Shown here: piece after piece, positions 38,440 to 58,396 of the stretch | How the letters are laid out: each line of letters begins with the position of its first letter | How positions within the stretch are numbered: the first letter of the stretch is position 1 | DNA from: Planctomycetota bacterium | Lineage (GTDB): Bacteria; Planctomycetota; JAJSAM01; JAJVHW01 | DNA: 64,000 nt | Assembly (NCBI GenBank): GCA_965248445.1 | Contig: CBDFJG010000004.1 | Location: forward strand, 832,001 to 896,000 | Direction of reading: 5' to 3' | Translations under genes and position numbers: made by a program | The notes under the pieces: generated by a model | What the model was told of the DNA's origin: nothing | Database searches by the model: none | Seen by the model: the letters and a program-made list of their open reading frames with translations, nothing else

Positions 38440-39312
38440 GTGGCGCGCGCTGACCTGCGCCGCCGCGAGAACGTCGCGGGCGATCTCTACGTCGATGATT
38501 CGTGCATCGACTGCGACACCTGCCGCTGGATGGCCCCCAGGACGTTCGCAGCGGTAGGCCGGCAGTCCGCGGTCGTTCGCCAGCCCGAGAGTGAGGAGGA
38601 CCTGCACGCAGCTCTCCTCGCCCTGGTCGCGTGCCCGACTTCCTCGATCGGCACCACCGAGCGGCACGACGTGGCGGCCGCCTCGCGCGCGTTCCCCATG
38701 CCGCTGACCGGCGACGTGTTCCTCTGCGGCTACCACGCGGAGTCGAGCTACGGCGCCACGTCGTACTTCGTCCAACGCGATGCGGGAAACGTGCTGGTCG
38801 ATTCGCCGCGCTTCGCCGGACCCCTCGTGAGTCGCCTGGAGGAACTCGGCGGCGTGCACACGATGTTCCTCACCCACCGCGACGACGTCGCCGACCACGA
38901 GAAATTCGCTGCGCACTTCGGCTGCGAGCGCGTGCTGCACGAGGGCGACATGGCGAGCGGGACCCGCGACGTCGAACACGTGATCACCGGCAACGAGCCC
39001 GTGGAGCTCGCAGACAACCTCCCCGTGATCCCGACACCCGGCCACACCACCGGCTCGGCGTGCCTGCTGCACCGCGAAGAGCACCTGTTCACCGGCGACC
39101 ACGTCGCGTGGAGCGTGAGCCGCCGCGCGTTCGGCGGATTCCGTTCGGTGTGCTGGTACGACTGGCCCACGCAGATCCGGTCGATGCAGCGGCTGGCGGA
39201 GCACCGGTACTCCTGGATCCTCCCGGGCCACGGGCGACGGCACCGCGTAGACCCTGACGACGTCCGCGCCGTGATTGCAGAGACGGTGCGCTGGATGGAG
39301 AGCGTGGCGTGA
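38440..39312 (+). CDS. ferredoxin-fused MBL-fold metallo-hydrolase
   Basis: CIDCDTC...ACPT, THRDDVADH, TPGHT, FTGDH, LPGHG. Confidence 0.9.
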   Translation: MARADLRRRENVAGDLYVDDSCIDCDTCRWMAPRTFAAVGRQSAVVRQPESEEDLHAALLALVACPTSSIGTTERHDVAAASRAFPMPLTGDVFLCGYHAESSYGATSYFVQRDAGNVLVDSPRFAGPLVSRLEELGGVHTMFLTHRDDVADHEKFAAHFGCERVLHEGDMASGTRDVEHVITGNEPVELADNLPVIPTPGHTTGSACLLHREEHLFTGDHVAWSVSRRAFGGFRSVCWYDWPTQIRSMQRLAEHRYSWILPGHGRRHRVDPDDVRAVIAETVRWMESVA

Positions 39313-39328
39313 CGTCGGCGGCTCGCCG

Positions 39329-39793
39329 CTACCGCGCCATCGGCGCGCTCGACGCCGACTGGAGTGAGGGCAGGTCGCGCAGGAGCAGACGCGCGAGTTC
39401 CGCCGCGTCGGCCTCGCCGTTGGGGACGGCCACGCTGGCTTCGTAGAGCTTCTGGCCGGTGGCGTCGTACAGCGCGGTGCGCGCGCCGGTCATCTCGGGG
39501 CCCCGCGCCACCGTCGTGAGGAGCATGGCGTCGCCGCGCCCGCCGCCGTCCACGTACTCGGGATCGAGGGGACTGAAGTTGCGCGCGAGCAGGCCGTCGT
39601 AGAGTTCGCCCCGGATCTCGCCGGACATGGCGGGATCGGCGGTCGGCGCGGCCACTGCGACGTCGCTCATGTCGACGGTGGAGAGCGCCGGCGAGGACGT
39701 GGCGCGCACCGACGACGTCGGGGTCTGGCAGGCAGGCAGCGTCAGCGCCAGAGCGAGGAGGGACGCGGACAGCAGGGTCATGGGTGCACGCAT
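39329..39793 (-). CDS. hypothetical lipoprotein
   Basis: LLSASLLALALTLPAC lipobox. Confidence 0.6.
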   Translation of the reverse strand: MRAPMTLLSASLLALALTLPACQTPTSSVRATSSPALSTVDMSDVAVAAPTADPAMSGEIRGELYDGLLARNFSPLDPEYVDGGGRGDAMLLTTVARGPEMTGARTALYDATGQKLYEASVAVPNGEADAAELARLLLRDLPSLQSASSAPMAR

Positions 39794-39866
39794 GGGGACT
39801 CTCCGGGGACGCGACGAGGCTAACGCGCGGCGGGGACCGTCCTCTCCCCGCCCGGGGCCGCGCCCG

Positions 39867-40550
39867 TCAACTCCCGATCGACCCGGACCACGGAGGACCC
39901 CCTGCCCGCGCTCCGGCGACATCCTGAGCGCGCGTCGCGCGCGCCGCACAGACGGCGACGCACGCGATCCCGGCCACCTCCAGCAGCCACCCGAACGACA
40001 GGTCCCCGAACGCGTCCGACACCACCGGAACGTGGTGAATCGCCGCAGCGCGAAGCAGCACGAACAGCGCTAGGATGCCGACGCCGACGAGTGCAATCCA
40101 AAGTCGACGTACGTCCCCGGAAGCCAGTCTCCATATGGCTTTTAGCCCGACGAGCCCACCGATCGTCAGCACCGCGACGAACGCGATCTGCACCCCCCGC
40201 CGCGCGTCGTACCACCCCTGCGCCCGCGCCACCCGACGCCCGAAGTCGGTCAGCAAATCGTGCAGGTCGAGTGGCTTGTTCGCACCGAGCAGCAACAGCC
40301 CCGCCGCCGCCACGACCCAGAACAACGCGACCCGAGACCGATCTCCCCACGCCCCCGTCACGACCGCCGCCCGCGCCGAGCGAGCAGCCCCCACACACAG
40401 CAGCGCGACCACGACATACGCGACCGCAATCGCCCACTCGAGGCCCTGGCCGGGGAACGCCGCCCACACTGGCATGTCCCGGCACCATCGCAGCCTCGGT
40501 ATTTCCGGATCAAGCGCAACGCTCCCCGCGCCATCAGTGAGAGCGCGCAT
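39867..40550 (-). CDS. multi-TM membrane protein divergent from the GT2-NRPS operon
   Basis: W..AVAY, FW...LLLLGANKPLDL..LLT..GR..A...GWY..RR.VQ; 5-6 hydrophobic segments. Confidence 0.7.
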   Translation of the reverse strand: MRALTDGAGSVALDPEIPRLRWCRDMPVWAAFPGQGLEWAIAVAYVVVALLCVGAARSARAAVVTGAWGDRSRVALFWVVAAAGLLLLGANKPLDLHDLLTDFGRRVARAQGWYDARRGVQIAFVAVLTIGGLVGLKAIWRLASGDVRRLWIALVGVGILALFVLLRAAAIHHVPVVSDAFGDLSFGWLLEVAGIACVAVCAARATRAQDVAGARAGGPPWSGSIGS

Positions 40551-40604
40551 CCCGTCGCTTCCACTGGGCCAGGACACGGGGCGCGCGCACAATGCAGACT
40601 GTCC

Positions 40605-41672
40605 ATGAACGCGACACCCGAGCCGGCACTGTCGATCCTGATTCCGACCCGCGATCGGGCGGAATCGCTGCGACTCACGCTCGAGGCCCTGGCCGCCGAC
40701 CGGACCGAGCACGCGTTCGAGGTCGTGGTGATCGACAACGGCAACCAGCCCACACTCGATCTCGACTCCCTCGTCGTGCCGACGCTCCCGTCACTCCGCC
40801 TGCTCCACGACCCCCGGCCCGGTAAGGCCCACCCAATGAACTGCGCGCTCGACGCGGGCGGCCTGGCCCCCCTCGTCGCGGTCCTCGACGACGACATGAC
40901 TCCCGCCACCGACTGGGTCGACGGCGTCCTCGCCGCCTCGGAGCGGCTGCCCGAGTTCGACATATTCTCCGGGCGCTCCCACGCCATCTGGCCGGGCGGG
41001 ACCACCCCGCCCGCGTGGGCGGACACGTTCGTCCTCGGTATGGCGTTTTCGGTGGCCGACCTCGACGCCGAACGCGACGTCGAGTTCGGAGTCGGTCCGG
41101 TCCCGGCCCCGAGCGGAAACCAGTTCTGGTTCCGCCGCACCGTGCTCCGAGCCGGGATGCGTTTCCCGGACGCGTGGCCGCCGGAGTTCCACTTCGTCAT
41201 GGCCCTGCGTGCTGCGGGACACAGGGGGACGTTCGTACCCGGAGTCGTCGCAGGTCACCGCGTGCAGCCCGAGCTGATCGGTCTCGGCGAGCTCCGGAAG
41301 AGGAGCGCCCGTCTCGGCCGCGAGATCGCGCGGCTGGAGTTCGTCCTTCCGGATCCCGCGGTACTCGGTGGCCCGCCGAGGATGAGCCGCTGGCGGCAGG
41401 CCGCTCGCGCGACCCTCGCGGTCGGCGCGTGGTCTATCCGGTGGGCGCGTGCTTCGCTGAGTCCGGCGGCGACGCGGCCCGGAACGCGGGCGCGGGCGAT
41501 CATCGGATTGGCGACGAACAGGGAGCGGCTGGCGCTGGCGTTCGCACCGGAGCGGGCGCGACTCCTTCGCGAGTGGATGTCGAGTACATCGCAGCCGATG
41601 TCCGGGGCAGCAGCACAACTCCGCAACGAGGAGTCGCACTACGGCAACGGCGCAAGCGAGTTCGCAAGATGA
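40605..41672 (+). CDS. glycosyltransferase family 2
   Basis: LSILIPTRDR, VVVIDNG, LDDD; ATGA overlap with the NRPS. Confidence 0.88.
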   Translation: MNATPEPALSILIPTRDRAESLRLTLEALAADRTEHAFEVVVIDNGNQPTLDLDSLVVPTLPSLRLLHDPRPGKAHPMNCALDAGGLAPLVAVLDDDMTPATDWVDGVLAASERLPEFDIFSGRSHAIWPGGTTPPAWADTFVLGMAFSVADLDAERDVEFGVGPVPAPSGNQFWFRRTVLRAGMRFPDAWPPEFHFVMALRAAGHRGTFVPGVVAGHRVQPELIGLGELRKRSARLGREIARLEFVLPDPAVLGGPPRMSRWRQAARATLAVGAWSIRWARASLSPAATRPGTRARAIIGLATNRERLALAFAPERARLLREWMSSTSQPMSGAAAQLRNEESHYGNGASEFAR

Positions 41673-44600
41673 GTCAGCAGCCTGAGCCCCGGCCCGTCCC
41701 CGCCGAGTGGTGCGAGCGTACCGTCGCCTACGACCGCAGCGTCCCGGTGCACGGCCACTTCGCCCGCGCTGCCACGCGGTACGCCGACAAGGTCGCGCTC
41801 CGCTGGTCGGGAGGCGACATGACGTATGCCGACCTCGACGCGCGCTCAGCCCGCCTGGCCTGCCTGCTCGTGGACGAAGGCGTCCGCCCGGGCGATCTCG
41901 TCCCGGTCGCGATGCACCGCTCGCCAGAGGTCATCATCGCCTTCCTGGGGATCTTGCGGGCCGGCGCGGCATTCGTGCCGCTCGACCCGACGTGGCCCGG
42001 CCTCAGACTCGCCGGCATGCTCGCGGACATCGCGCCTCGGCTCGCCGTCGTCGACGGGGACGTGCCCGGCTGGCCAGAGGACATCGCGACGCTGTCGCTC
42101 GACAGTGTGGGCGACACGCTGGAGGGATGGCCCGGATCCCCGCCCGACGTCGCATGCGACCCGGAGTCCCCTGCATACGTGATGTTCACCTCGGGCTCCA
42201 CCGGGCGCCCTAAGGGGGTCGTCGTCCCTCACCGCGCGATCGTCCGCCTGGTCATAGGCAACGACTTCGCAGACCTCGGATCCGATCAGACGTGGCTGCA
42301 GGGCGCGCCGCTCTCCTTCGACGCCTCGACACTCGAGATCTGGGCCCCGCTTCTGAACGGGGGCACGTGCACACTGCTGGACGCGGAGATCCCCACGATC
42401 GAGGAACTCCGCCGGGCCATCGCGGACCTCGGCGTCACGAGTGTGTTCCTCACAACGGCGCTGTTCAACCTCGTGGTCGACGAGGATCTGCCCGCGCTGG
42501 CTCCGCTGCGGCAGCTGATCACCGGCGGCGAGGTCTGCTCTGTCCCGCACTTGCGGCGCGCGTTCGACGCGCTGCGCGCGACCCGGCTCATCCACGCCTA
42601 CGGCCCCACCGAGAACACGACGTTCACGACCTGCCACACGATCCGACAACAGGACTTCGCGTCGGCTGGGTCGATCCCGATCGGCCGGCCCATCGCGAAC
42701 ACGCGCGTGTACGTGCTCGATGAACAGGACCAGCCGGTGGGCGTCGGCGAGCCGGGAGAACTCTGCGCCGCCGGCGATGGCGTGGCGATCGGCTACCTGG
42801 GGCGTCCAGAGGCGACCAACCGGGCCTTCGTCCCGGACCCCAGAGACGCTGCTACCGGCGCGCGGATGTACCGGACCGGCGACCTGGTCAGGTGGGACGA
42901 CGACGGTCGCGTTCAATTCGTCGGCCGCAAGGACCGTCAACTCAAGATCCGCGGCCATCGCATCGAGCCCGGCGAGATCGAGGCGCATCTCAATCGCTGC
43001 CCAGGCGTGCGCCGCTCGGCGGTGCGGGCGGAGGAGACCGACGCCGGCCGACAGCTCGTGGCGTTCGTCGTCGCAGACGCGCGCGGCCGGACCGCAACTG
43101 CGGCGCTCCGCAAGCAACTCGCAGCCCATCTGCCTGCCCAGATGCTCCCGTCGCGGTTCGAGTGGATCGACACGCTGCCGATCGGCGACACGGGCAAGCT
43201 CGATCGCGAGCGGCTGCCCGCGCCGAGCGGCGAGTCGGACCAGGGGGCACGTCCGGTGCCCGACGCGTGGAACGGCCGCACCGTTCCTTACGACCGGTCC
43301 ACTCCTGTTCACGGGCACGTCGAACGGATGGCCGCAGCGCATCCAGGTCGCATCGCGATTCGCACGGGCAGCGAGGAGATCACGTACGCCGAACTGGACG
43401 CGCGCTCGGCGCAGCTCGCGCGCCTACTGGCCGAGCACGGCGTCGGCCGCGGAGACTTCGTCCCAGTGGCGATGTGCCGCTCTCCCGACGTCATCGTGGC
43501 CCTGCTTGCCACGCTGCGGGCCGGAGCCGCCTTCGCGCCGCTGGGCCCCGCATATCCGGCAGCACGGCTCCGAACCATGTTGGACGATCTGGCGCCACGC
43601 CTCGCAATCGTCGACGACGACATCGTCCGAGCGGGCTGGCTCGACGACATGACAGTCCTCGAGCGGCGTGATTGGGCGGACGTACCGCGTTCGCCCGAGC
43701 AGCCGCCGCCTCGCGTCAAGGTCGATCCGGATGCCCCCGCGTACGTGATGTTCACGTCGGGAACCAGCGGCCGGCCGAAGGGCGTGATCGTGCCCCACCG
43801 GGGGATCGTCCGCCTCATCGTCGGAGCGGACTACGCGAAGTTCGGTCCGGATGAGACGTGGCTGCAGGCAGCCCCGCTGGCGTTCGACGTCTCCACGATC
43901 GAGATCTGGGGGCCGCTCATGACTGGAGGGACCTGCGCGCTACTCCCGCAGCAGGTGCCGGTGGTCCACGAACTCCGCGACGCCATCCGCGAGCTCGGCG
44001 TGACCAGTCTGAATCTCACGACGTCGCTGTTCAACCTGGTCGTCGACGCCGACGTGGACGCTCTGGCGCCCGTTCGACAACTCCTCGTTGGCGGTGAGGC
44101 GCTGTCACCGCAGCACGTGCGACGTGCTTTCGAGGCGCTTCCGAACACCGCGATCATCAATGTCTTCGGACACACCGAGAACACCACGTTCACGACCAGC
44201 CACACCGTCCGCCGCGAGGACGTGGTGTCCGGAGAGTCGATCCCCATCGGCCGCCCGATCGCGAACACGCGTGTCATCGTCGTCGACCACGACGGCCGCC
44301 CTGTGGGTATCGGGGTGCCAGGTGAGGTCTGCGCGACAGGTGACGGTGTCGCGCTCGGCTACCTGAAGTCCCCGGATCTGTCGAGCCGCGTCTTCGTCCC
44401 CGACCCCACCAGCCCGGCCGCCCGGATGTACCGGACCGGCGACCAGGCGCAGTGGGGGGACGACGGGCTCCTGCGCTTCGTCGGGCGCATGGATCGACAG
44501 CAGAAGATCCGCGGCCACCGGGTCGAGCCCCAATCGGTCGAGATAGCGCTGCTCGCCTGTTCCGGCGTGCGCCAGGCGGCGGTCGAAGTGCACGCGGTTG

Positions 44601-47482
44601 CTGGCGCGAAGCAGCTCATCGCTTTCGTGTCGGGACGCAGGCGAACCGACCTGCGGTGCGAACTGTCCACGCGTCTGCCTGCGTACATGATGCCGTCGCG
44701 TATCCATTGGCTCGACGCGCTGCCCCTCGGACCACGCGGCAAGGTCGACCGCGCGACGCTTCGTCGACGGCTGGAGCGGTCGACGAGCATGCAGACTCCG
44801 CTCTCTCCGGGGGACGGAACCGCGCTGTCGGTCGTCCTCAACATCTGGCGCGAACTACTCGGGCTCGAGGAACTGGGCCCGAACGACGACGTACTCGCCG
44901 CCGGTGCCGACTCGCTCACGACGGTTCGTGCCGCCGCACGCATCGACGAAGAACTCGGGGTGCGATTGTCGTTCACGGATCTGCTGGCGGCGCGCACGGC
45001 GCTGAACATGGCGCCGCTCATAGAGGCGCCAAGGGACGACACGGAGGACGCAGAAGCGCTCCCGAGCGGTCCGCCGCAGCTCGGCGTCGGGGAACTCCTC
45101 GTCCATCTGGTGAGCCTGAGCAGTCCGCCGGCTGCGTACAACGAACCGTTCGCGACGACACTGCGCGGCGAGCTGAACGAGCTCGCCCTGCACGCCGCGC
45201 TCGACGACCTCGTGGCCCGCCACGAGGCGCTGCGAACCCGCATCGCGCGCCGCGAGGACTCGTTCGTGCCAGTGGTGCAGCCCCGTGCGCCGTTCCCGCT
45301 CGCCACGGCGGATCTTCCGTGGGACGAGTCCGCCGTCAGCGCCCGACTCGTCGAAGAATCCGCGCGTCCGTTCGACCTCGCGAGCGAAATGCCGGCGCGG
45401 GGCCTCCTTCTGCGTCACGGCCCGCGGCACGCGAGTCTCCTGCTCGTGTTCCACCACGTGGTGTTCGACGACTGGGCGATGGCCATTCTGTTCCGTGAAC
45501 TCGGCGTGCTGTATGCGGCGCACCGTGAGGGGCGGCTTCCCGAGTTGCCTGCTCCGGGGGGCCAGCCATCGGACATCGCGCGTACCCTCGCTCTCCGCCT
45601 GGACAAGCGACGACGGGCGCGGGAGATCACGTTCTGGAAGTCCACGCTCAACGGCGTGGACGTGCGACTCGCCCTGCCACGTCCGACGGATGACGATCTC
45701 GCTGTCGAGGGTCGGCAGTCCCAGCGGGAGATCCCGGTACCGATCGACGATCGAACGGCCGAGGCCCTCGAGGCGCTGGCCGTCGAGTGCGGTGTGACAC
45801 CGAACGCGGTGGCGCTCGCCGGCGTCGGAGCCGCTCTTTCCCGCGAACTCGGGCGGAAGGACGTCGTCCTCACCACGCACTTGACCCTTCGAGACGTGCT
45901 CTCGGCGACCGACATTGTCGGCATCGCGCTCAACGCCGTCATGATCCACATGCATCTCGAGCCCGACCTGGACCACCGTGGCCTGATCGGGCAGGTCGCC
46001 GAGACGAGCGCTGCGGCGTTCCGCCACGGTCTGGTACCGATCGCGGACGTGCTGCCGGCACTGGACATCCCGCGTGAATCCGCTCGGCGACCGCTCCAGG
46101 CCCTGGTCGTGCACCGTCCGCACACGGACGTGGTCATCGAGCTTGATGAACTGCAGTCCTCGCCCTTGACGACCCGCACGCAGATTCCCAAGGCGGACCT
46201 CCTTGTCTGGCTGGATCGCGCCGACGTCGGCTACGACTCGCGGATCGAGTACGACGGCCGGAACGTCTCGGCGGCGTGGGCTGCCCGCCTCGCCGGGACG
46301 CTCGCCGCCGTGTACCGGGAGATGTGCGAGGACGCCTCTGCGCTCGCTGTCCCTGCCGGCGCGTTGGCGCAGCTCGCCGACGACCCGGTACCGGCGTCAT
46401 CATCGGAACCCGCCGCCACGCCCGTGGCCCCCGCGACGGCGACCGAGACCGTCGTTCTCGAGGTCTGGCGCGAACTCCTCAGCAGCCCTGACATCGGGGT
46501 CCTGGACGACTTCTTCTCCCGCGGCGGGCACTCACTGCTCGCAGTGCGCATGCTCGCGCGTGTCGAGAAAGCCACGGGAGTCAACCTGCGCGCGCGGGCC
46601 GTGTTCGAGATGCCCACGGTGCGCGGCCTGGCAACTCTGATCGACGAACGCGGCACGCTGCCCACAGGCGCGGCGTCGGGAGCGCTGCTCCTGCGCGACG
46701 GTGGTGCAACGGCGCCGCTCTTCTGTCTTCCGGGCGTCGGAGGCCACGCGTTCCAGTACCGAGAATTGGTGGAACGCATGCAGACGCAACGCCCGCTTTA
46801 CGCGCTGCAGCTCCACGATCTCGATGTATCCGCCCGCTGTCTGGAGTCCGTCGACGAGACGGCGGCGGCGTTCGTCGCGAGCATTCGCTCGGTGTGCCCC
46901 CATGGGCCGTACGCACTCGCCGGCTACTCGTACGGCGGCATGCTGGCGATCGAGATCGCACGGCGCCTGACGGACGCAGGCGCAGCGGTGCAGTTCGTCG
47001 GCCTGATCGACACGTACGCACCCGGCGTCGCGTTTCCCGCACCGCGACTGCGCAAGGTGGGCGCGCACCTGCGCAGCCTCGCCTCCATGGGCCTCGGCGA
47101 GGCCTCCGAGTACCTCTCGAGTCGCATCCGCCGACGGATCGCGGCGGCTGCGTTCTACCTCCGCGAGCGGAAGACCGGAACGCCGGAGATCTCGGAGAGT
47201 CTCGCGACGCGAATCGAGGAGACACGCGTCCTCTGCCTGCGAGCGATTCGGAACTACGAGGTCCGCCCCATTCCGACTCCGGTCGCCGTCTTCCGGGCCA
47301 CCCGCCTCACCGATTGGGTCGACGTCAACGATCCCACCGGCACCTGCGGCTGGGGTCCGCTGGCTCCCGCCGTGACCGTGGTCGACCTCGACTGCGAGCA
47401 CCTCGAGCTCTTCCGCGAGCCTCACTTGAGCGAGCTTGCGGCCCGGCTCGACGAGGCGCTCGCGAGCCTGGGCGACGCCTAG
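41669..47482 (+). CDS. non-ribosomal peptide synthetase, domain order A-A-T-C-T-TE (1937 aa)
   Basis: A1: YVMFTSGSTGRPKG, YGPTE, YRTGD, GKLDR. A2: YVMFTSGTSGRPKG, FGHTE, YRTGD, GKVDR. T1: GADSL. C: HHVVFDD. T2: GGHSL. TE: GYSYGG. Confidence 0.92.
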   Translation: MSQQPEPRPVPAEWCERTVAYDRSVPVHGHFARAATRYADKVALRWSGGDMTYADLDARSARLACLLVDEGVRPGDLVPVAMHRSPEVIIAFLGILRAGAAFVPLDPTWPGLRLAGMLADIAPRLAVVDGDVPGWPEDIATLSLDSVGDTLEGWPGSPPDVACDPESPAYVMFTSGSTGRPKGVVVPHRAIVRLVIGNDFADLGSDQTWLQGAPLSFDASTLEIWAPLLNGGTCTLLDAEIPTIEELRRAIADLGVTSVFLTTALFNLVVDEDLPALAPLRQLITGGEVCSVPHLRRAFDALRATRLIHAYGPTENTTFTTCHTIRQQDFASAGSIPIGRPIANTRVYVLDEQDQPVGVGEPGELCAAGDGVAIGYLGRPEATNRAFVPDPRDAATGARMYRTGDLVRWDDDGRVQFVGRKDRQLKIRGHRIEPGEIEAHLNRCPGVRRSAVRAEETDAGRQLVAFVVADARGRTATAALRKQLAAHLPAQMLPSRFEWIDTLPIGDTGKLDRERLPAPSGESDQGARPVPDAWNGRTVPYDRSTPVHGHVERMAAAHPGRIAIRTGSEEITYAELDARSAQLARLLAEHGVGRGDFVPVAMCRSPDVIVALLATLRAGAAFAPLGPAYPAARLRTMLDDLAPRLAIVDDDIVRAGWLDDMTVLERRDWADVPRSPEQPPPRVKVDPDAPAYVMFTSGTSGRPKGVIVPHRGIVRLIVGADYAKFGPDETWLQAAPLAFDVSTIEIWGPLMTGGTCALLPQQVPVVHELRDAIRELGVTSLNLTTSLFNLVVDADVDALAPVRQLLVGGEALSPQHVRRAFEALPNTAIINVFGHTENTTFTTSHTVRREDVVSGESIPIGRPIANTRVIVVDHDGRPVGIGVPGEVCATGDGVALGYLKSPDLSSRVFVPDPTSPAARMYRTGDQAQWGDDGLLRFVGRMDRQQKIRGHRVEPQSVEIALLACSGVRQAAVEVHAVAGAKQLIAFVSGRRRTDLRCELSTRLPAYMMPSRIHWLDALPLGPRGKVDRATLRRRLERSTSMQTPLSPGDGTALSVVLNIWRELLGLEELGPNDDVLAAGADSLTTVRAAARIDEELGVRLSFTDLLAARTALNMAPLIEAPRDDTEDAEALPSGPPQLGVGELLVHLVSLSSPPAAYNEPFATTLRGELNELALHAALDDLVARHEALRTRIARREDSFVPVVQPRAPFPLATADLPWDESAVSARLVEESARPFDLASEMPARGLLLRHGPRHASLLLVFHHVVFDDWAMAILFRELGVLYAAHREGRLPELPAPGGQPSDIARTLALRLDKRRRAREITFWKSTLNGVDVRLALPRPTDDDLAVEGRQSQREIPVPIDDRTAEALEALAVECGVTPNAVALAGVGAALSRELGRKDVVLTTHLTLRDVLSATDIVGIALNAVMIHMHLEPDLDHRGLIGQVAETSAAAFRHGLVPIADVLPALDIPRESARRPLQALVVHRPHTDVVIELDELQSSPLTTRTQIPKADLLVWLDRADVGYDSRIEYDGRNVSAAWAARLAGTLAAVYREMCEDASALAVPAGALAQLADDPVPASSSEPAATPVAPATATETVVLEVWRELLSSPDIGVLDDFFSRGGHSLLAVRMLARVEKATGVNLRARAVFEMPTVRGLATLIDERGTLPTGAASGALLLRDGGATAPLFCLPGVGGHAFQYRELVERMQTQRPLYALQLHDLDVSARCLESVDETAAAFVASIRSVCPHGPYALAGYSYGGMLAIEIARRLTDAGAAVQFVGLIDTYAPGVAFPAPRLRKVGAHLRSLASMGLGEASEYLSSRIRRRIAAAAFYLRERKTGTPEISESLATRIEETRVLCLRAIRNYEVRPIPTPVAVFRATRLTDWVDVNDPTGTCGWGPLAPAVTVVDLDCEHLELFREPHLSELAARLDEALASLGDA

Positions 47483-47504
47483 AACCTGCGACCGGCCGAC
47501 AGAC

Positions 47505-48549
47505 CATGCATATCCGGTTGACGACCGTGACCCCAAGGGGTAGTGTCTCGGACGCATGCCGAAGCCGGGCTACCCTCGCAACATCGTGGAGTTCACGGAG
47601 CAGTTCGCGACGGAAGAGCAGTGCCTCGAGTACCTCGTGCAGTGTCGTTGGCCCGACGGGTTCCGCTGCCGCCGGTGCGGCGGCAAGAAGTACTGGCCCC
47701 GTCCAGATCGAAGAGCGATGCGGTGCGTGGGCTGCGACCTGATCACGTCGGTCACCGCGGGCACAGTGCTGCATCGCAGCCGGCTGCCGCTGAAGTCCTG
47801 GATGTGGGCCGCGTACTTGATGACGACGGACAAGCGGGGCGTCTCTGCGCTCGCACTCCAGCGACAGCTCGGTCTGACCCGCTACGAGACCGCGTACCAG
47901 ATGCTCCAGAAACTGCGATCTGCGATGGTCGCGCCGGAGCGCGCGCAGTTGTTCGGCGTCGTCGAGGTCGACGAGGCGCTGATCGGAGCGCCGTTTCGAG
48001 GCCGAGAGGAGCGCACCGCGGCAGACAAGGCCGTCGTGGTCGGCGCGGTCGAGGTGCGTCCGACGAAGAGAGGTACACAGCCCGGACGCATCCGGCTGCG
48101 CCACGTGCCGGCCTCATCGAAGCCGCACCTGCTGGCGTTCGTCAAGGACAGCATCGAGCGTGGGGCGCTCGTCGTGACCGACGGCCACGAGACCTACGAC
48201 GCAGTCGAGAAACTCGGCTACGAGCACGGGATCGAGTCCACGATGATGGGCGCGGCGCAGGCGGACGTCCTGAGGCACCTGCACCTGGTCTTCTCCAACC
48301 TCAAGAGACCTGGCTCGTAGGCACGCACCACGGCCGGGTCTCGAAGAAGCACCTGCAGCGGTATCTCGACGAGTTCACGTTCCGGTTCAACAGGAGACGC
48401 ACGCCGCAGGCAGCGTTCCAGACGGTCCTCGGCATCGCGGCGAAGACGCCGCCGCGCACGTACGAACAGGTCTACGCCGACGAGCCTGCAAGCCCGCTGC
48501 CCTTCTAGCACAAGATGTAGTGGGCGCGGTCATTAACCGGATATGCATG
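47505..48549 (+). mobile_element. IS1595-family insertion sequence
   Basis: TIRs CATGCATATCCGGTTGACGACC / GGTCATTAACCGGATATGCATG; 8-bp TSD CGACAGAC at 47497-47504 and 48550-48557. Confidence 0.92.
47556..48508 (+). pseudogene. IS1595 transposase, frameshifted near 48305
   Basis: Zn ribbon CRRC..CVGC, VEVDE, VTDG, then HLQRYLDEFTFRFNRR in another frame; CTCAAGAGACCTGG has an extra AG versus L-K-T-W. Confidence 0.85.
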
Positions 48550-48662
48550 CGACAGACCGCCCCCCCCCCCCCTTTCTTCCGAGTCTTCGGATCGAACGAA
48601 GTCCGGTCTCAGGCTGGGGTTCACACGATTCGAGAAAGTCAACTGTCAGCAAAAGAAAACGG

Positions 48663-48691
48663 TTGACGGGGTGTTAAGGGCTACTTAGGCT
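48663..48691 (+). promoter_or_regulatory. sigma70-like promoter for the PEP-CTERM gene
   Basis: TTGACG-17 nt-TAGGCT in an AT-richer spacer. Confidence 0.5.
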
Positions 48692-48725
48692 CGTCGCACC
48701 GTCCGGAAGCTTCAGTTTGGGGAGT

Positions 48726-49469
48726 ATGAAGATGAAGACGAGTGTGGGTATTGGTGCGCTGGCCTTCATTGCCGCGCTTGGGCTGTTGGCGCCGATTGCG
48801 AGCGCTGACCTCATTGACGACGTAGAGGTCGGCGACTACCTGCGCCTCTACGACGGGCCCGGTGGCGGAAACGGTGGCGAGTTCGAGGCCAAGGTGATGG
48901 CGAACTCCACCACCTACACCAATGTCGTCGACAGTTGGTTCACGTTCTGCATCGAGCGGAACGAGCACTTCAACTACGGTGAACAACAGAGAGTCGAGAC
49001 GATCTCGGACACGGCGATCGGCGGCGGCGTCAACGCCTCCGGCGGAGGTGACGTACTCGAGTACACGACCGCGTATCTCTACACGCAGTTCCGCAACGGC
49101 ACGCTGGAAGGCCGGGACGGGACCGGCAACTTCTTCGACACCAATGAAGAAGTGGACAACGCGACGGCGCTCCAGGAGGCCATCTGGTGGCTCGAGGGCG
49201 AGTATGGCGCGACCGCTGCGGTCACGGATCGATCCACCGAGGCCCAGCACTACATCAGCCTCGCACAGAACGCGGGCTGGACGAGCCACGGGAACGTCCG
49301 CGTCATGAACCTCGAGAGACAAGTGACCGTGAGCGGTTCGACTCAGTGGATCGACGCACAGAGTCAACTCATGCTGGTCCCCGAACCGGCAAGCGTAGCT
49401 CTTCTGGGGATCGGACTCGCAGCCGCGGCCTGCCTGCGGCGGCGGCGCGTCGCAACTCTCTCGCGATAA
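48726..49469 (+). CDS. PEP-CTERM sorting-domain surface protein (thioester-domain-like motifs)
   Basis: Signal peptide; FCIE, LQEAIWW, AQSQLML; VPEPASVALLGIGLAAAACLRRRR. Confidence 0.92.
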   Translation: MKMKTSVGIGALAFIAALGLLAPIASADLIDDVEVGDYLRLYDGPGGGNGGEFEAKVMANSTTYTNVVDSWFTFCIERNEHFNYGEQQRVETISDTAIGGGVNASGGGDVLEYTTAYLYTQFRNGTLEGRDGTGNFFDTNEEVDNATALQEAIWWLEGEYGATAAVTDRSTEAQHYISLAQNAGWTSHGNVRVMNLERQVTVSGSTQWIDAQSQLMLVPEPASVALLGIGLAAAACLRRRRVATLSR

Positions 49470-49668
49470 CAAGACCAACGGAACCCAAGCGCGCCGGCGA
49501 CGGCCTCATACGGGTGTAGTCCAGCAAAGGACTCATCAGAGGCTTGTCGTCGGCGCTTTTGTGCGTTCTTCGTGTCGTCGGCGGCGCGCTGCCGTTGGTC
49601 GGAGACTTCGACCGCAACGGGGGCGCGTCCTTCCCTCGAGGCTCGCGAAAACGCGGGGGACGGTAGCC

Positions 49669-49677
49669 TGTTAGAAT
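49669..49677 (+). promoter_or_regulatory. possible extended -10 promoter for the exosortase operon
   Basis: TGTTAGAAT about 30 nt before the exosortase start. Confidence 0.35.
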
Positions 49678-49707
49678 CTGGGCGCCGATGATGGGGGATG
49701 ACGACGC

Positions 49708-50580
49708 GTGACCGCTGCGAGCGCGACCAGCAAGGGGTTCTGGGGTGGTCCCACGCACCGCGTGATTCTCCTCGTCGTCGTCGCGCTTCTCGTAGTGGCG
49801 TTCGGCCCGACTCTGGTGGAAGTCGTCACGAAGTGGAAGGACCAGCCCGAGTACAGCCATGGATTCCTGATGCCACTCGTCGCGGCGTGGATGGTCTGGG
49901 AACGGCGAGCGGAGTTCGGGCGCCTCGCCCCGCGTGCGTCCTTCGTGGGCGGCCTCCTGCTGCTCCCGTGCGTCGGTCTCCTGCTTGTCGGCGAGGTGGC
50001 GCTGTTCGAAGTCGTCAAGCCCTACGCCTTCGTGGGCGCCCTCGCGGCAATCCTCTGGGCCTTCTACGGGCGCACGTCGGTCCGCGTCGCGATCGCACCC
50101 CTGGTCGCGCTGTTCCTGATGTGCCCGCTGCCACGCTCGATCGTGGACGGAATGACGGTCCCCCTGAGGGGCAGCGCCGCGCTGCTCGCCACGGGCATGC
50201 TCGACCTCACCGGCATCCGCGCCACGCTGGACGGCAACCTGATCAGCCTGCCCGGTCTCGAGCAGTTGTTCGTGGCCGACGCGTGCAGCGGCATCAACTC
50301 GCTGATCTCGCTCGGCAGCCTGGCGATCATCGTCTGCCTGGTCTGGCGACGGCATTGGGCCGTCGCCTCCGTGGTCCTCCTGTCCTGCATCCCGATCGCC
50401 ATCCTGACGAACGCTCTGCGTATCTGGCTGACCGGGTTCCTGTCCGTCCAGATGAGTCCCGAGACCGCGAAGGGCGTCTTCCACAACTTCCAGGGGATGG
50501 CGCTGTTCGGTGTGGGGCTGGTGTTCCTGTGGGGCTGGACCACTCTCATCGGCCGCGCGTTCCCGGCGAGGCTCGCATGA
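49708..50580 (+). CDS. exosortase
   Basis: EYSHGFL, VADACSG (Cys), NALRI (Arg), FHNFQG (His). Confidence 0.93.
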   Translation: MTAASATSKGFWGGPTHRVILLVVVALLVVAFGPTLVEVVTKWKDQPEYSHGFLMPLVAAWMVWERRAEFGRLAPRASFVGGLLLLPCVGLLLVGEVALFEVVKPYAFVGALAAILWAFYGRTSVRVAIAPLVALFLMCPLPRSIVDGMTVPLRGSAALLATGMLDLTGIRATLDGNLISLPGLEQLFVADACSGINSLISLGSLAIIVCLVWRRHWAVASVVLLSCIPIAILTNALRIWLTGFLSVQMSPETAKGVFHNFQGMALFGVGLVFLWGWTTLIGRAFPARLA

Positions 50581-51260
50581 ACAACACCGTGCGCGCGCTG
50601 GTCATCGTCTCGCTGGTCGTCGCGGCGATCGGCGTCCACATGTTCCGGTCGATGGTCGCCCCGGGCGATCCCGACCCCATCCGCATCGCCGCGGTGCAGC
50701 GTCGCCTCGACGCGCTACCCATGACGCTCGCGGATGGAAAGTACACCGGCGTGCGGCAGAACCACGAGCAGGAGCTCGTCGTCAAGTCCGGCGCCGACAG
50801 CCACGCCGCCGCGGCGTTTGCCACCGAGAATCACGCGCTCCAGTTCAACATCTACATTGGCGGCTCCACCAACCCCGACCTCGCGTTTCACGCGCCGAGC
50901 GTCTGCCTGCCAGCCGCCGGCTGGGAGCTCGCCGACGATCGGTTGGTGGAGTTCGAGGCGTTCGCTGCCGACTCTCCCGACAGTCAGATGCGCCGCCTGC
51001 ACGTCAGGTTCGGCAACGACGAGAGGCTCTGCTACTTCTGGTTCCAGTCGGGAACGGACATCGCGCCCTCGATCTGGAAGGCTCGCTTCTTCAACTTCCG
51101 CGAGCGCCTCGGTGGCGAGCGGAATTCCCCGACGTACATCGTTGTCGTCTACGCGCCGATACGGGAGAGCGTGCGTCACACCGATCAGGCGGCGCGGCTC
51201 TTCATGAAGGCCCTGGGTCCCCAGATTCTGAGCGCCGTCGCAGAAGATCACGACGGATGA
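50577..51260 (+). CDS. EpsI-family exosortase-associated protein
   Basis: ATGA coupling; FHAPSVCLPAAGW, CYFWFQ. Confidence 0.88.
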   Translation: MNNTVRALVIVSLVVAAIGVHMFRSMVAPGDPDPIRIAAVQRRLDALPMTLADGKYTGVRQNHEQELVVKSGADSHAAAAFATENHALQFNIYIGGSTNPDLAFHAPSVCLPAAGWELADDRLVEFEAFAADSPDSQMRRLHVRFGNDERLCYFWFQSGTDIAPSIWKARFFNFRERLGGERNSPTYIVVVYAPIRESVRHTDQAARLFMKALGPQILSAVAEDHDG

Positions 51261-54159
51261 CGAGTTCTGAGCCCCCTCCAGGCGCCGGGTCCTCGCGGCG
51301 CATCTGGGTCGTCGTACTCGCGTTCGTGCTCGCAGCCCTCGGCGTTGCGACCTGGCTGGCTGTCACGCGCGGGATGCGCCGCTCCGACCTCTACGCAGTC
51401 GCGCTCACCGAGTTCGCAGCCGGCGATCGCGCGACTGCCGAGAGTCTGCTACGCCAGCTCCTCGACGCCAACTCGGAAAACCCGAACGCTCGCAAGAAGC
51501 TGATCGAGATGCTCCTCGAGGACGAGCGCTTCGAAGAAGCCCGCGAGTTGGCAGAAGTCTGGACCGATCTCAACGCCCGACCGCACCTCGGCTGGGCCTA
51601 CCGGATCGAGGTGGAGCTGCGACAGGCACATCTGGCTGAGGCCGAGAAGCTCGCACGCGACGTCATCGACCGCATGCCCGAGCTCTCGCTGACGACCATC
51701 GTCCGGGTACGCGACGCGCTCGGTACGTACTCCGACCGCTGGGAAGCGCAGAAGGCCGCGGTCCACGTGGCAACGATCACCGATACGCCCGTGCGCAAGT
51801 CGATCAACTTGCTCTTCGCGGCGGAGACCATTCTGGACATCGCCCCCTCGATGACGGCGGGCGCCTCCGGTCCTGCCAGACAGATCGCTCGGCGCTACCT
51901 CGACGAGGCGCTCGACACGCTCGACGAAGCGACCCCCACCGGCAGCGAGAGCGACGAGGCACGTCGAGTACGCGCGCGCATCCTGCTCCTGTCAGAAGAT
52001 GAGTGGGAGCGCGAGAGCGGCGAGAAGACCCTCAACGCCATTCTGGACGCCAACCCGAGAGACTTCGAGTCGCACGCCGCGATGGCGACGTTCTACGCCG
52101 CGCAGCAGGACTGGAAGAGCGCTGTCGGCAAGGTCCAAGACCTGTCAGGCGCGAGCCGCCCGTACCTGATCTGGCTTCGCGCCGTGCGGCGCCTCGCCTC
52201 TCGCGCCCCGTTCGACATCGTTCTCCCGCTACTCGAAGCCTCGCAGCGTCCTGACGAGCCGCTCTTCGTGTTGCTGCGAGCCGGCGTCCTGCTCCGGGAG
52301 TTCGAGCGCGGAGGCAAGGAGGCGTACCGGGAGCAGGCAGCCGAGATGCTGTTCGGGCTTGCCGATCCGAATCGCGATGACGTCGACCGACGCATGCTCG
52401 TCGCCGCCTGCCGTCTCCTCGCAGCGAGCGGCGAACAGAAGCGAGCCCTGGGCCTCCTTGAACGGATTCCCGACGACGAACTCGACGCCGCCGACCGCGC
52501 GCTGCTCGGCAGCGGTCTCGGCGGCGGGACCGATCGCGCGGAGAGACTGCTCGACGGACTGTCCGGACGCGTCCGGACCCTGCGCGAGAGCATCCGCGTG
52601 CTGAGCGTGCTTCAGCGCAGCGACGACGACACCGTGTCCGCCTACCTGAATTCTCCCATCACCGCCGGAGGCGACGACGGCGCGCGTCTCCACTTGATGC
52701 GCGCAGTGTCGGCAGCAACGTTCGGTCGCCGGACACCTCCCGGCACGCGGCAGACGATCCTGCTGGACGCGGCCAAGCGCGACCTTCGAGCCATCTCCGA
52801 GACAGCGCCCAAGGAGACGCTTGCCGACGCCTTCCGGCTGTCGCTCGGCGTGCAGGAGTACGAGCTCGCCGGGATGCACCTCGGACGCGCGCTCGCGAAA
52901 GAGGGTCGGCCGTACGCTCTCTCACTCTTCGCCCTCGCACTGGGCCGCAACACCAAGGAAGCCGACGTCCGCGCGGCCATCGCGACAGGCATCCGGTCGG
53001 CCGCCGTGGACTCGAACGCAGAGCGCTACCAGCTCGCCGTGGCAGACGCCATCGAGACGCCGCCCGCAGCGAGCCCGGTTCGCAGACCGCCGCGCTCATC
53101 CTGGGCACCCAGCTGGCGAACGCAGACAAGGACTTCGACGACTCACGGCGCCTGGCCGAGACGCTCGTCGCGGCCCGTCCCGACTCGGAGTATGCGCGCG
53201 CGTTGCTCGGCGACCACTACCTCCGAGACAAGGACTTCTCGGCCCTCCTCGAACTCCACGACGGGAACACCGGCGACGATGTGGACGCCACCCGGCAGCG
53301 CGTTCTCGCTCTCTTCGAACTCGGGCAGGAGACCGAAGCGATCGCCCTCGCACGCAAGGCCACGAGAGCGCATGGCGATCGCAGCGACGAACCCCACCTC
53401 CTCCTGGCCCACCTCCTGAAGCGGACGCGACAGCCCATGCGCGCCCTGGGGGCCCTCGCCACGGCACCCAGCACCACTCGCGTGCTGCTGTTCCGCGCGC
53501 AGTTGTTGACCGATAGCGGAGAGCTGTGGGCCGCAGAGACGCTCTACGTCAACCTGCTTGCTCGCGCGTCCGAAGCCGACAACCGGACCGCGTGGTTGGG
53601 GATCAGCAACGTTCTCTCGCGGCAAGAGCGACACCCAGACCTGGTCGAGGTCCTGACGCGGGTACTTGAACCGCGTGACTCACAGTTGCCCGAAGCACTT
53701 CTCAGCACTCTGCACACGCTGCGTGGTAGCGCACGCGAGCGCCTTCCTGATTTCGGCCTCGCGCTCGTCGACTACGAAGCGGCCATCGAATTGAACCCGA
53801 ACGAGATTGTGGCCCTCAACAACGCTGCGTGGTTGATCCACGAGATCGCGCTCGAGCGGATCGACGAGGCCCGGCGGTTCATCGACACAGCCCTCGAGCT
53901 TGCGCCCGAGAACCGGAGCGTGCTCGACACCGCCGCGGTCGTCTATCTGGCGCTGGGCCGTCGCGAGCAAGCGCTCGAGTACGCAGAACGCGCCCTCGCC
54001 AAGGAACGCAAGCCCGAGTATCTGATCCATCGCGCCAAGGCGCTCCGCGAACTCGGACGCGACTCGGAAGCGAGAAAGAGCCTCGTGGAGGTGTTGGAGT
54101 CCTCGCCAGGCACCAACGCCGCCGCCCAGGCTTCGCGCCTTCTCTCGGACTTCCAGTGA
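51257..54159 (+). pseudogene. membrane-anchored TPR protein (PrsT-like), frameshifted near 53050-53090
   Basis: N-terminal TM and TPR helices; continues in another frame as AALILGTQLA...ALNNAAWL...LDTAAVVY, typical of exosortase-locus TPR proteins. Confidence 0.75.
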
Positions 54160-54201
54160 TCCATGAGCCGTTGGCCTGCGGCAGTGAACCCGACATCCCT
54201 C

Positions 54202-54265
54202 TACGTCCTGTCGCTCAACTCCGACACCGTGGTCCATGGACGACGCCATCGGCAAGACGATCACG
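54202..54265 (+). pseudogene. possible GT2 remnant
   Basis: YVLSLNSDTVVH, frameshift, then DDAIGKTI resembles the GT2 NxD motif region. Confidence 0.4.
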
Positions 54266-54300
54266 TGCGCACGTCTTGAGCCGGTCCATCTGCCGTGCGC

Positions 54301-55800
54301 GTAACCGTTCACCCCTTCGTCGCGAGCCAGGATCCAGATCGTTCGGCCATCGGTCGATCAAGAGGTTGTGGGCGAGCGGCAGGACGAGGATCTGCGGGCG
54401 ATGGTCGAGGGCCTTCTGGCCTGGATCGAGGAGCTGGAGCGTCGCGAAGCGAAGCATCTGCGCCGCATCGACGAGCTCGAGTCGCGTCTGAAGCGTGACT
54501 CCCGCAACAGCTCGAGGCCTCCGTCGTCGGACCCGGCGTGGTCCAAGCGCCGTCGCGGCCGAAGGCCGCGTAGCGGTCGCCAGCAGGGCGGACAGCCGGG
54601 CCATGAGGGCACGGCGCGCGAGCTGGTGGATCCGTCCAACGTCGATGAGACCAAGGAGCACCGTCCCGACCTCTGCGACGCGTGCGGACACGACGATCTC
54701 GAGCAGGGCATCGGCGATCCGTACCGGCACCAGGTGACGGTGCTCCCGCGCGTGCTCGTCACGGTGCGGGAGCACCGGCTGCACAAGGCGCGGTGCCGGC
54801 GCTGTCGTGCGGTCACGACGGCGGTCCTGCCCGATGGCGTGCCGACCGGGGCCTTCGGTCCGCGGCTGACCACACTTGCCGGCGCGCTGCGCGGCGTGTA
54901 CCGCGTGAGCGTGCGGGAGACGCAGCGGCTGCTCGGTGAGATCTTCGGTGTGAAGATGTCGCTGGGCAAGATCAGCGACTGTGAGCGTCGGCTCAGTGAC
55001 GCTCTGCACTCGTCGTACCTCGAAGCCCTCGGGGCAGTCCGCACGTCGCTGCGAGCCAACGTGGACGAGACGTCGTGGAAGGAACGGGGCCGGGTGTGCT
55101 GGCTGTGGGCGGCGGAGAGCGAGCACGCCACAGCCTTCGGGATCGATCGCCGCCGCAGTGCCAAGGCGAAAGGGCGGCTGATCGGGCGGCGTTTCGGTGG
55201 CACGGTGATCAGCGACCGGATGGGTGCCTACGAGTCACACCCACTTGCCCGCCGCCAGCTCTGCTGGGCGCACATCGAGCGCGCCTTCCGTGCGCTGGCC
55301 GAAGGCCCGCGAGGACATCGCCGCTTCGGCAACAAGGGCGTCATGATCGCGCAGTCGGTCATGCGCAGCTACCGGCTCTTCGGTGAGCACGGCGACCGTG
55401 ACCGGCTGCAAGGCGAAGCCGCTGTGCTGCGCGGACGGCTCGAGCGACTGATCGCGAACGACGACTCGGCTCTGGCCAACCATCTGCGCCCCCGCGTGGT
55501 CGCCCTCTTCACCTATGCGCGGACCCAGGACGTGAGTCCGACGAACAACGCCGCCGAGCGCGCGGTCCGCAAAGCGGTGCTCTGGCGCAAGGGCTCCTTC
55601 GGAAGCCAGTCCGCTCGCGGACTCCGTTTCGCCGAGCGCGTGTTGACCGCCGCGGCCACGCTGCGACGCCGTGGCAACCAAGTCTTCGACTTCCTCGCCG
55701 ACTCGGTCGCCGCGCACCTCACCGGCGCCGACCCGCCCGTCATGGTCCCGCTGCCCGTCGCACGCTGAGGCTCACACGCTGTCAAGGGGTGAACGGTTAC
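54301..55800 (+). mobile_element. IS66-family (single-ORF, ISBst12-like) element, 1500 bp
   Basis: TIRs GTAACCGTTCACCCCTT / AAGGGGTGAACGGTTAC; no matching TSD. Confidence 0.92.
54368..55768 (+). CDS. IS66 transposase
   Basis: NSSRPPSSD, GGQPGH, VDETSW, SDRMGAY, CWAH, TNNAAERAVR. Confidence 0.93.
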   Translation: MGERQDEDLRAMVEGLLAWIEELERREAKHLRRIDELESRLKRDSRNSSRPPSSDPAWSKRRRGRRPRSGRQQGGQPGHEGTARELVDPSNVDETKEHRPDLCDACGHDDLEQGIGDPYRHQVTVLPRVLVTVREHRLHKARCRRCRAVTTAVLPDGVPTGAFGPRLTTLAGALRGVYRVSVRETQRLLGEIFGVKMSLGKISDCERRLSDALHSSYLEALGAVRTSLRANVDETSWKERGRVCWLWAAESEHATAFGIDRRRSAKAKGRLIGRRFGGTVISDRMGAYESHPLARRQLCWAHIERAFRALAEGPRGHRRFGNKGVMIAQSVMRSYRLFGEHGDRDRLQGEAAVLRGRLERLIANDDSALANHLRPRVVALFTYARTQDVSPTNNAAERAVRKAVLWRKGSFGSQSARGLRFAERVLTAAATLRRRGNQVFDFLADSVAAHLTGADPPVMVPLPVAR

Positions 55801-56483
55801 CACAGTCGCTGATCTTGCCCAGCGACATCTTCACACCGAAGATCTCACCGAGCAGCCGCTGCGTCTCCCGCACGCTCACGCGGTACACGCCGCGCAGCGC
55901 GCCGGCAAGTGTGGTCAGCCGCGGACCGAAGGCCCCGGTCGGCACGCCATCGGGCAGGACCGCCGTCGTGACCGCACGACAGCGCCGGCACCGCGCCTTG
56001 TGCAGCCGGTGCTCCCGCACCGTGACGAGCACGCGCGGGAGCACCGTCACCTGGTGCCGGTACGGATCGCCGATGCCCTGCTCGAGATCGTCGTGTCCGC
56101 ACGCGTCGCAGAGGTCGGGACGGTGGTCCTTGGTCTCATCGACGTTGGACGGATCCACCAGCTCGCGCGCCGTGCCCTCATGGCCCGGCTGTCCGCCCTG
56201 CTGGCGACCGCTACGCGGCCTTCGGCCGCGACGGCGCTTGGGCCACGCCGGGTCCGACGACGGAGGCCTCGAGCTGTTGCGGGAGTCACGCTTCAGACGC
56301 GACTCGAGCTCGTCGATGCGGCGCAGATGCTTCGCTTCGCGACGCTCCAGCTCCTCGATCCAGGCCAGAAGGCCCTCGACCATCGCCCGCAGATCCTCGT
56401 CCTGCCGCTCGCCCACAACATCTTGATCGACCGATGGCCGAACGATCTGGATCCTGGCTCGCGACGAAGGGGTGAACGGTTAC
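55801..56483 (-). mobile_element. inverted 5' fragment (683 bp) of the same IS66
   Basis: Matches 54301-54983 in reverse, with at least 3 substitutions; abuts the right TIR of the full copy. Confidence 0.9.
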
Positions 56484-56492
56484 CCTCATCCG

Positions 56493-56727: not shown

Positions 56728-56760
56728 TGTCAACGACTTTGAGACACCGCGTCTTCGAGT

Positions 56761-58289: not shown

Positions 58290-58396
58290 CGCTGGTTCCT
58301 CCACCGCCCTGCACAGTAATCATCCGTGGGGTCGTCGGTGTCTCAGCCACGTTGGCACAGAGGGCGATCTCGTGGGGTGGAGGGGCAGGGAGCTAC

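Follow-up and report, generated by a model that had tools for sequence, protein, structure and literature searches.

What is a nonribosomal peptide synthetase (NRPS) doing beside PEP-CTERM and exosortase genes in a planctomycete? The question is raised by a stretch of 64,000 nt (the window; C4:832001-896000 of genome G000, which has 5.4 Mb and is 92% complete), whose gene list was checked with Pfam and NCBIfam. A preliminary description of this DNA had proposed a single system in which the NRPS, a neighbouring membrane protein and the PEP-CTERM/exosortase genes decorate a surface glycan with amino acids. The conserved unit is smaller: it is a two-gene cassette of a family-2 glycosyltransferase (GT2) and the NRPS. 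This GT-NRPS cassette is real, rare and undescribed, it has an unusual architecture and lies in a decaying locus, and it is linked more to surface-glycan loci than to the exosortase. Its genes and domains are the following (A, adenylation; T, carrier; C, condensation; TE, thioesterase):

40605..41672, + strand: GT2, cassette core; PF00535, GT-A fold, orthologues elsewhere
41669..47482, + strand: NRPS of 1937 aa, cassette core; A1-A2-T1-C-T2-TE, uninterrupted, as seen from its domains and identical short-read contigs
41729..43228, + strand: A1 domain, ten-residue code DALFIGATFK by alignment
43289..44761, + strand: A2 domain, code DVINLGVTFK, altered A5 motif; diverged duplicate of A1 (57% aa, 68% DNA identity)
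44819..45034, + strand: T1 carrier domain, Ser1082 in GADSL
45089..46348, + strand: C domain, HHxxxD motif (His1262, His1263, Asp1267)
46439..46663, + strand: T2 carrier domain, Ser1622 in GGHSL
46709..47479, + strand: type I TE with the predicted triad Ser1754/Asp1781/His1911, which defines the clade described below

The TGA of the GT2 gene overlaps the ATG of the NRPS gene as ATGA (41669-41672), as had been stated before. The overlap itself is not conserved, with gaps of about 70-80 nt in G001 and L026, and the pairing of the two genes as a unit is conserved across genera and orders. Relatives were collected by scanning a TE alignment against genome and metagenome collections, which gave 63 and 75 loci; a viral collection held one distant TE match only. 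In a FastTree phylogeny of 72 TE rows (matches below 120 bits or 170 residues were left out), the window TE fell into a clade of 19 rows with a support of 98, and G193 and G007 formed its sister group (85). The clade and G562 amount to 15 distinct loci with gene context, mostly from Planctomycetota, when L086/L087 are counted once; P0272 and P0273 came without context.

A dedicated glycosyltransferase (GT) adjoins the NRPS in 10 of these 15 loci, namely the orthologous GT2 in seven and a GT87 in three. The GT2 is located directly upstream of the NRPS in the window, L023, L026, L028, L030, L086/87 and G562, with 44-51% identity for the orthologues of the six other loci. The GT87 occupies the slot between a phosphopantetheinyl transferase (PPTase) gene and the NRPS in L024 and L025 and is divergent in L051; identity between the L024/L025 group and L051 is 40-42%. 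GT87 enzymes use lipid-linked sugar donors and act on envelope glycoconjugates. No dedicated GT was found at L022, L027, L085 and L032, and the contig of L029 ends inside the NRPS. The grouping seen for the TE recurs in the GT2 tree, possibly as a mere result of shared descent. A GT2 profile matched in seven of 401 sampled genomes of the phylum, three times at E<1e-100 and then always directly before the NRPS, while no NRPS was visible within 3-4 kb of the four weaker matches. The T-C-T-TE region is present in 3 of 17 genomes of the order.

Two members of the clade differ in their surroundings. The one at L022:5512-10783 is reduced to a PPTase and T-C-A-T-TE, without GT or EPS (exopolysaccharide) neighbours, and its genome gave no exosortase match. 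At L085:621-20774 (54% GC), the NRPS lies near a terminase gene, with a GT2, methyltransferases and a GMC oxidoreductase downstream, and the region is possibly a prophage-borne glycan-modifying one. An ATP-grasp-like gene before the L085 NRPS had been called by eye only and was dropped, as Pfam and NCBIfam returned no match.

The synthetase possesses A, T, C and release domains, all with their catalytic motifs, and its C domain is the only one in genome G000. The canonical C-A-T order of module 2 is absent from the window NRPS (A-A-T-C-T-TE) and from those of G001 and G007 (A-T-C-T-TE); most clade relatives have the canonical A-T-C-A-T-TE. The ten-residue codes were obtained via alignment, with positions cross-checked on an LgrA alignment. 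Most relatives carry a DFWNIGMVHK-type code first and a DALWLGGTFK-type code second, which we take to mean Thr and Val, respectively, and DALFIGATFK is presumably Val/Ile-like. L024/L025 combine the Thr code with DALFQGLVWK, and G001 and G007 have a single Val-type A domain ahead of T-C-T-TE. A1 and A2 of the window are sisters (support 98) and the pair is sister to the G001 domain (100), which indicates a duplication within the window lineage. The TE remains a single clade (98) while A and C domains and the architecture vary. A homologue search with the whole NRPS mostly returned generic multi-module NRPSs. A separate group of ~2010-aa A-T-C-A-T-TE NRPSs (P0291, P0301, P0304, P0306, P0285), including cultured Aquisphaera, has a Thr-type first code and DIEDIGTVIK as second code.

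A PPTase for the carriers is available, as the only Sfp-type match of the genome (PF01648) is encoded on contig C3, outside the locus. It follows a run of thiolase-like, hydrolase, AMP-ligase and reductase-like genes (L163:9642-14905), which presumably resembles an olefin (ole) cluster. Contig C4 also encodes a 1319-aa A-T protein with hexapeptide repeats according to its Pfam domains (L164:5205-9161), which we assume to be similar to Pls/PosA-type synthetases.

The clade is enriched near EPS or exosortase genes relative to other thioesterases. Among 14 clade loci, six had a gene for exosortase, Wza, Wzc, Wzy or an initiating transferase at a distance of up to ~10 kb from the TE, versus 3 of 71 other TE loci; of the clade loci, L026, G562, L028, L030 and L086 are related to one another. 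Queries for this count were restricted to loci with no clade NRPS nearby and control loci were at least 12 kb long, so that 53 shorter control loci were dropped, whereas four of the clade loci are themselves below 12 kb. An earlier count with partly self-derived queries had given 8 of 14 (the author's tally) versus 6 of 71. Homologues that keep away from EPS and exosortase genes, which the preliminary description had named as the finding that would speak against it, are thus not the pattern observed. In G001, L026, G562, G260 and L030, the NRPS is embedded in a full Wzx/Wzc-type locus, and wider fetches placed L026 and G562 inside flippase-Wza-Wzc loci; Pfam detected GT2s and an ABC transporter beside the NRPS of L032. 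In G001, a 35-kb locus ends with the orthologous GT2 (46%) and an A-T-C-T-TE NRPS; it also encodes a flippase, a polymerase similar to Wzy, Wzc, GT4s, exosortase, EpsI and a tetratricopeptide repeat (TPR) protein. Further products of this EPS locus are a polysaccharide deacetylase, a stand-alone AMP ligase and a small protein resembling a carrier (L011:11677-13661). In G007, a 6.7-kb contig carries an A-T-C-T-TE NRPS gene that runs divergently from genes for a GT87 and a UDP-sugar dehydrogenase. In G000 itself, the wza, wzc and Wzy_C genes and a second exosortase are located on contig C3. There, L160-L161 (C3:505-545 kb) is the second EPS locus to contain an exosortase; it has two carbamoyltransferase-like genes and a wzc region in pieces.

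NRPS genes beside EPS genes were also seen outside the clade. A-T-TE or T-C-A-T-TE genes directly follow a wzc-like gene in L041:6433-10804, L049:6416-10825, L047:1-4219 and L045:1-7536. These planctomycete loci, two of which (L041 and L049) have upstream GT4s, represent a second NRPS-in-EPS arrangement. In Acidobacteriota, L042:1327-17109 (also L043, L039 and L040) contains TE-ended NRPS genes, a PPTase and asparagine-synthase-like genes, with wza/wzc adjacent in L042.

What would such a pair make? In the explanation that fits best, and to which we give an even chance, GT2 and NRPS would build a Val-containing dipeptide, and the TE would move this dipeptide onto a surface-polysaccharide sugar predicted to be supplied by the partner GT. 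Gene pairing, domain order, intact catalytic motifs, the TE clade and the enrichment at EPS loci are direct observations, and the chemical steps are inferred from them. The single Sfp-type PPTase of the genome would prime T1 and T2 in trans. A1 and A2 would load the two T domains with a Val/Ile-like residue and a second residue; most relatives would load Thr and Val according to their codes, and in G001 one Val-type A domain would have to serve both T domains. The C domain would then join the loaded residues, and the TE Ser would take over the dipeptide and pass it to a sugar hydroxyl or amine instead of water. The acceptor sugar, predicted to be added by the partner GT, would sit on a cytoplasmic lipid-linked repeat unit, and export would proceed via Wzx/Wzy/Wza, in G000 through the EPS loci on contig C3. 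In a variant of this scheme, hydrolysis would be followed by ligation by asparagine-synthase-like or AMP-ligase enzymes such as those found in L026.

Transfer by the TE is favoured because the GT slot is filled by two unrelated GT folds, because the GT type is independent of the amino-acid code, because the TE is constant while A and C domains change, and because of the EPS context. It had been left open before whether the TE or the C domain transfers the group onto the glycan. As the C domain lies between two T domains, it most likely forms the peptide bond, and the TE remains the sole candidate transferase.

Several observations weigh against this explanation. Close kinship or a common synteny connects five of the EPS-embedded loci, and the counts make them look more independent than they are. 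L022, L024, L027 and L085 have no EPS core genes in their ~20 kb of context, and L022 and L027 have no GT either. Wza, Wzc, flippase, polymerase and initiating transferase were not found in the window, its cassette is devoid of the PPTase gene that most relatives carry, and the TPR gene next to it is broken in G000. The TE model (pLDDT 80) does not discriminate, since EntF, Pks13 and other type I TEs including cyclising ones match it alike with 22-25% identity. The GT2 model (pLDDT 82, GT-A fold) is matched equally by AvpGT, hyaluronan synthase and TarS/TarP; its top match AvpGT, solved with a small nucleoside, is level with teichoic-acid GTs. Neither model favours one acceptor over another.

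Some of these points would suit another product. A-T-C-A-T-TE with a Ser-Asp-His TE is an ordinary layout for dipeptide release, and the NRPS might release a diffusible dipeptide or diketopiperazine, maybe glycosylated by the GT, with its siting in EPS loci due to a biofilm role and co-regulation, a role of the kind that has been proposed for N-acyl amino acids. The structural match of the GT2 to an enzyme solved with a small molecule and the four clade loci without EPS context are in line with this. N-acyl amino acid synthases, which are GNAT-like, offer a precedent: they are amino-acid-based genes tied to exosortase/EPS loci, also in planctomycetes. One article links N-acyl tyrosines (stieleriacines), made beside PEP-CTERM and EPS genes in a planctomycete, to these genes, citing a 2011 paper (PMC7293339). 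Such a linkage is hence compatible with a small molecule; the synthases differ from the cassette in that they yield diffusible lipo-amino acids and have neither NRPS nor partner GT. On the other hand, the GT2 partners Thr-containing as well as Val-only synthetases, and Val-only products have no side-chain hydroxyl. The GT87 is a membrane enzyme, which fits lipid-linked chemistry, and the loci share no dedicated exporter or tailoring gene; in agreement with the preliminary description, none was found by Pfam within 39.3-54.3 kb. We regard a free or glycosylated small molecule as a strong rival explanation, though a less probable one than transfer to a glycan.

How does dipeptide transfer onto a polysaccharide compare with known systems? 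DltABCD and AlmEFG use an adenylation domain and a phosphopantetheine carrier to activate an amino acid for an envelope polymer. The cassette has the same two components, with an envelope polymer as proposed target, but it is without MBOAT or AlmG-type transferase and free carrier, and has fused C and TE domains and Val/Thr-type codes. In place of a stand-alone DltA-type A domain with a free carrier, the domains are fused, with a TIGR01734 score of 465 (cut-off 560); NF003417 is passed with 482 (cut-off 476), but only because this score covers the whole protein with its two A domains. No MBOAT match was obtained among 17 window proteins or 27 and 103 neighbour proteins from our own gene calling, which may miss genes. 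The analogy to Dlt-type acylation drawn earlier consequently does not extend to membership in that type.

VpsH of Vibrio cholerae adds glycine to lipid-linked VPS intermediates, and amino-acid substitution of polysaccharides is termed uncommon in the same article (PMC13463779), in whose main text the terms NRPS and carrier protein are absent. Here as in the proposed route, an enzyme encoded in an EPS locus puts an amino acid onto a lipid-linked Wzx/Wzy repeat unit, and the glycine modification is dispensable for polymerisation. VpsH is, however, a stand-alone ligase-like enzyme for one glycine, whereas the cassette comprises a full NRPS (two carriers, C and TE) and a dedicated GT and would attach a dipeptide via its C-terminus. 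The TE of Pks13 releases its product onto polyols, preferably trehalose (PMC9210659); in the accessible part of PMC5509550, no statement on release onto trehalose was found. Pks13 resembles the window enzyme as a type I TE that would place an assembly-line product onto a sugar, and it is among the top sequence and fold matches of the window TE, but its identity lies in the same range as that of hydrolysing and cyclising TEs, and its substrate is a polyketide lipid for trehalose and not a peptide for EPS.

The acyl-CoA ligase TIGR03098 and the amidotransferase TIGR03108 are likewise predicted to perform acyl or amide tailoring in exosortase EPS loci, and relatives of them lie beside the NRPS in L026. 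They are single-function enzymes, though, and the window NRPS scored 394 against the TIGR03098 cut-off of 592. AusA, a dimodular dipeptide assembly enzyme, was among the top NCBIfam matches of the window NRPS, which reached 844 with a cut-off of 2500 and differs by its TE instead of a reductase, its A-A-T-C-T-TE order and its GT partner. The PEP-CTERM/EpsH system is described without NRPS terms in the accessible part of PMC1569441, the abstract of which mentions single-gene operons with large upstream gaps, and no NRPS term was found in the available parts of the epsSMASH preprint and PMC12078418. In the literature searched, which covered subscription journals only to a small extent and articles partly, no description of a GT-NRPS dipeptide cassette in EPS loci was found; the dipeptide tagging of a polysaccharide that is likely for this cassette would follow a route not found there.

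The neighbours of the cassette are the following:

39867..40475, - strand: NKxLDL-family protein with five transmembrane segments (NKQLD motif); divergent, probably outside the cassette
47505..48549, + strand: IS1595-family insertion sequence (IS) with frameshifted transposase; 8-bp target duplication at 47497-47504 and 48550-48557
48726..49469, + strand: PEP-CTERM protein, context not core; PepA-like, below the PepA family cut-off
49708..50580, + strand: exosortase, context; TIGR02602 above cut-off, Cys/Arg/His motifs present
50577..51260, + strand: EpsI, context; TIGR02914 above cut-off
51257..54159, + strand: PrsT-like membrane-anchored TPR gene, context; frameshift near 53050-53060
54164..54300, + strand: possible internal piece of a WbbL-like GT2 (weak); IS66 cuts at 54301

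After removal of IS1595, the PEP-CTERM, exosortase, EpsI and TPR genes all lie 3' of the NRPS on the + strand, as had been described. The PEP-CTERM/exosortase system is recognisable by TIGR02602, TIGR02914 and TIGR02595 above cut-off, and the PEP-CTERM protein is one of three PEP-CTERM matches in the genome. A promoter and terminator scan of the locus revealed no promoter and nothing above chance; a sigma-70-like pair seen by eye at 48663, before the PEP-CTERM gene, has 8 of 12 matches and is below threshold.

Is the exosortase, then, part of the cassette? It is a frequent neighbour but not a required part. An exosortase is found within ~10 kb in 5 of 15 clade loci, two genes away in the window and in G193, and somewhere in the genome in 8 of 10 carrier genomes tested, the two others (incomplete genomes) giving no match. 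The NRPS cassette is accordingly no obligate part of the exosortase system, and of the single decoration system proposed earlier the GT2-NRPS pair and the EPS enrichment stand, while the exosortase and the NKxLDL protein drop out. The proximity has also to be considered in another light: the dipeptide, or a lipid-linked glyco-dipeptide, could be the amine acceptor for exosortase transfer of PEP-CTERM proteins and thus serve protein anchoring and not polymer decoration. A C-terminally esterified dipeptide would indeed retain a free amine. Given that two carrier genomes are without exosortase match, that the cassette is rare (six strong TE matches in the 401 genomes) compared to the exosortase, and that the exosortases near cassettes belong to different subfamilies, we consider this role very improbable.

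The multi-transmembrane NKxLDL protein is divergent from the GT2 gene, as reported before, but it is absent from all homologous loci and is not part of the conserved unit. Its profile (137 members) matched only the window copy among all fetched loci and genome G000, a single query found nothing in five of five carrier genomes tested, and a word-based homologue search returned only the protein itself. The family is unannotated, with 1891 representatives in a HMMER library search; its Atlas name 'isopropylmalate isomerase family' is automatic, and there is no Pfam family. Further upstream, an nfeD-stomatin pair is followed by a 1250-aa protein (33999-37799) with an N-terminal signal-like stretch and a Gly/Ser-rich tail, for which Pfam and NCBIfam gave no match.

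Does the cassette still work in G000? The locus is partly decayed, yet GT2 and NRPS are intact. IS1595, of which the genome has several near-identical copies, has its inverted ends at positions 47505 and 48549, and the 8-bp target duplication around it is exact, from which it follows that its flanks were once contiguous; without it, the NRPS stop and the PEP-CTERM start (48726) are 190 nt apart. The target duplication also led us to reject a misassembly at this site, where contig depth on either side was unequal in two of four short-read runs. Three runs, all from one sample that may be the source sample, gave contigs that matched 39000-47532 and ~48522-54300 without differences, and a fourth run covers most of the region in shorter pieces. 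The TPR frameshift and the tandem A domains are therefore real and no assembly errors, and a sequencing error as origin of the frameshift was discarded, as it is the same in the short-read contigs. An intact PrsT-type TPR protein is not encoded, both parts being below the TIGR02917 cut-off. The GT2 remnant that had been noted after the TPR gene is a weak match only, namely 19 residues shared with WbbL-like GT2s of related loci (E 4e-4 in a 210-nt search, in which a chance hit reached 7e-4); its second half was not found in genome G000. The IS run that begins there (54301-62560) consists of IS66 with an inverted partial copy, an IS3-like element, DDE_Tnp_1 and a second IS66. IS66 is scattered through the genome in dozens of copies with 99% identity.

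The frameshift, the possible GT2 fragment before the IS run, the many near-identical IS66 copies and the altered A5 motif of A2 would all agree with a non-working leftover of an exosortase-EPS locus dismantled by insertion sequences, whatever the relatives do. However, 6.9 kb of GT2 and NRPS sequence are without stop or frameshift, the motifs are kept despite the divergence of A1 and A2 to 68% DNA identity, and the genome has two other EPS loci and a PPTase. We regard a dead cassette in G000 as improbable.

A wider form of the transfer hypothesis is put forward tentatively, and we hold it to be somewhat doubtful as a whole: a mobile PPTase-GT-NRPS cassette would graft an NRPS-made dipeptide via the TE onto an EPS sugar added for this purpose, and swap, loss and duplication of A domains together with GT2/GT87 exchange would create peptide 'serotypes' of biofilm glycans. 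NRPSs would then be structural glycan-tailoring enzymes and not small-molecule factories. If this is true, a class of NRPS clusters listed by genome mining as small-molecule pathways would instead supply biofilm polysaccharides with peptide side chains, and a thioesterase able to acylate sugars with peptides would be of use in glycoconjugate synthesis. With the series A-T-C-A-T-TE, A-T-C-T-TE and A-A-T-C-T-TE, nature offers a test of two ideas, namely that a single A domain can serve two carriers and that specificity can be regained through duplication. For uncultured planctomycetes, the cassette would provide a genetic handle on the amino-acid substituents of their EPS.

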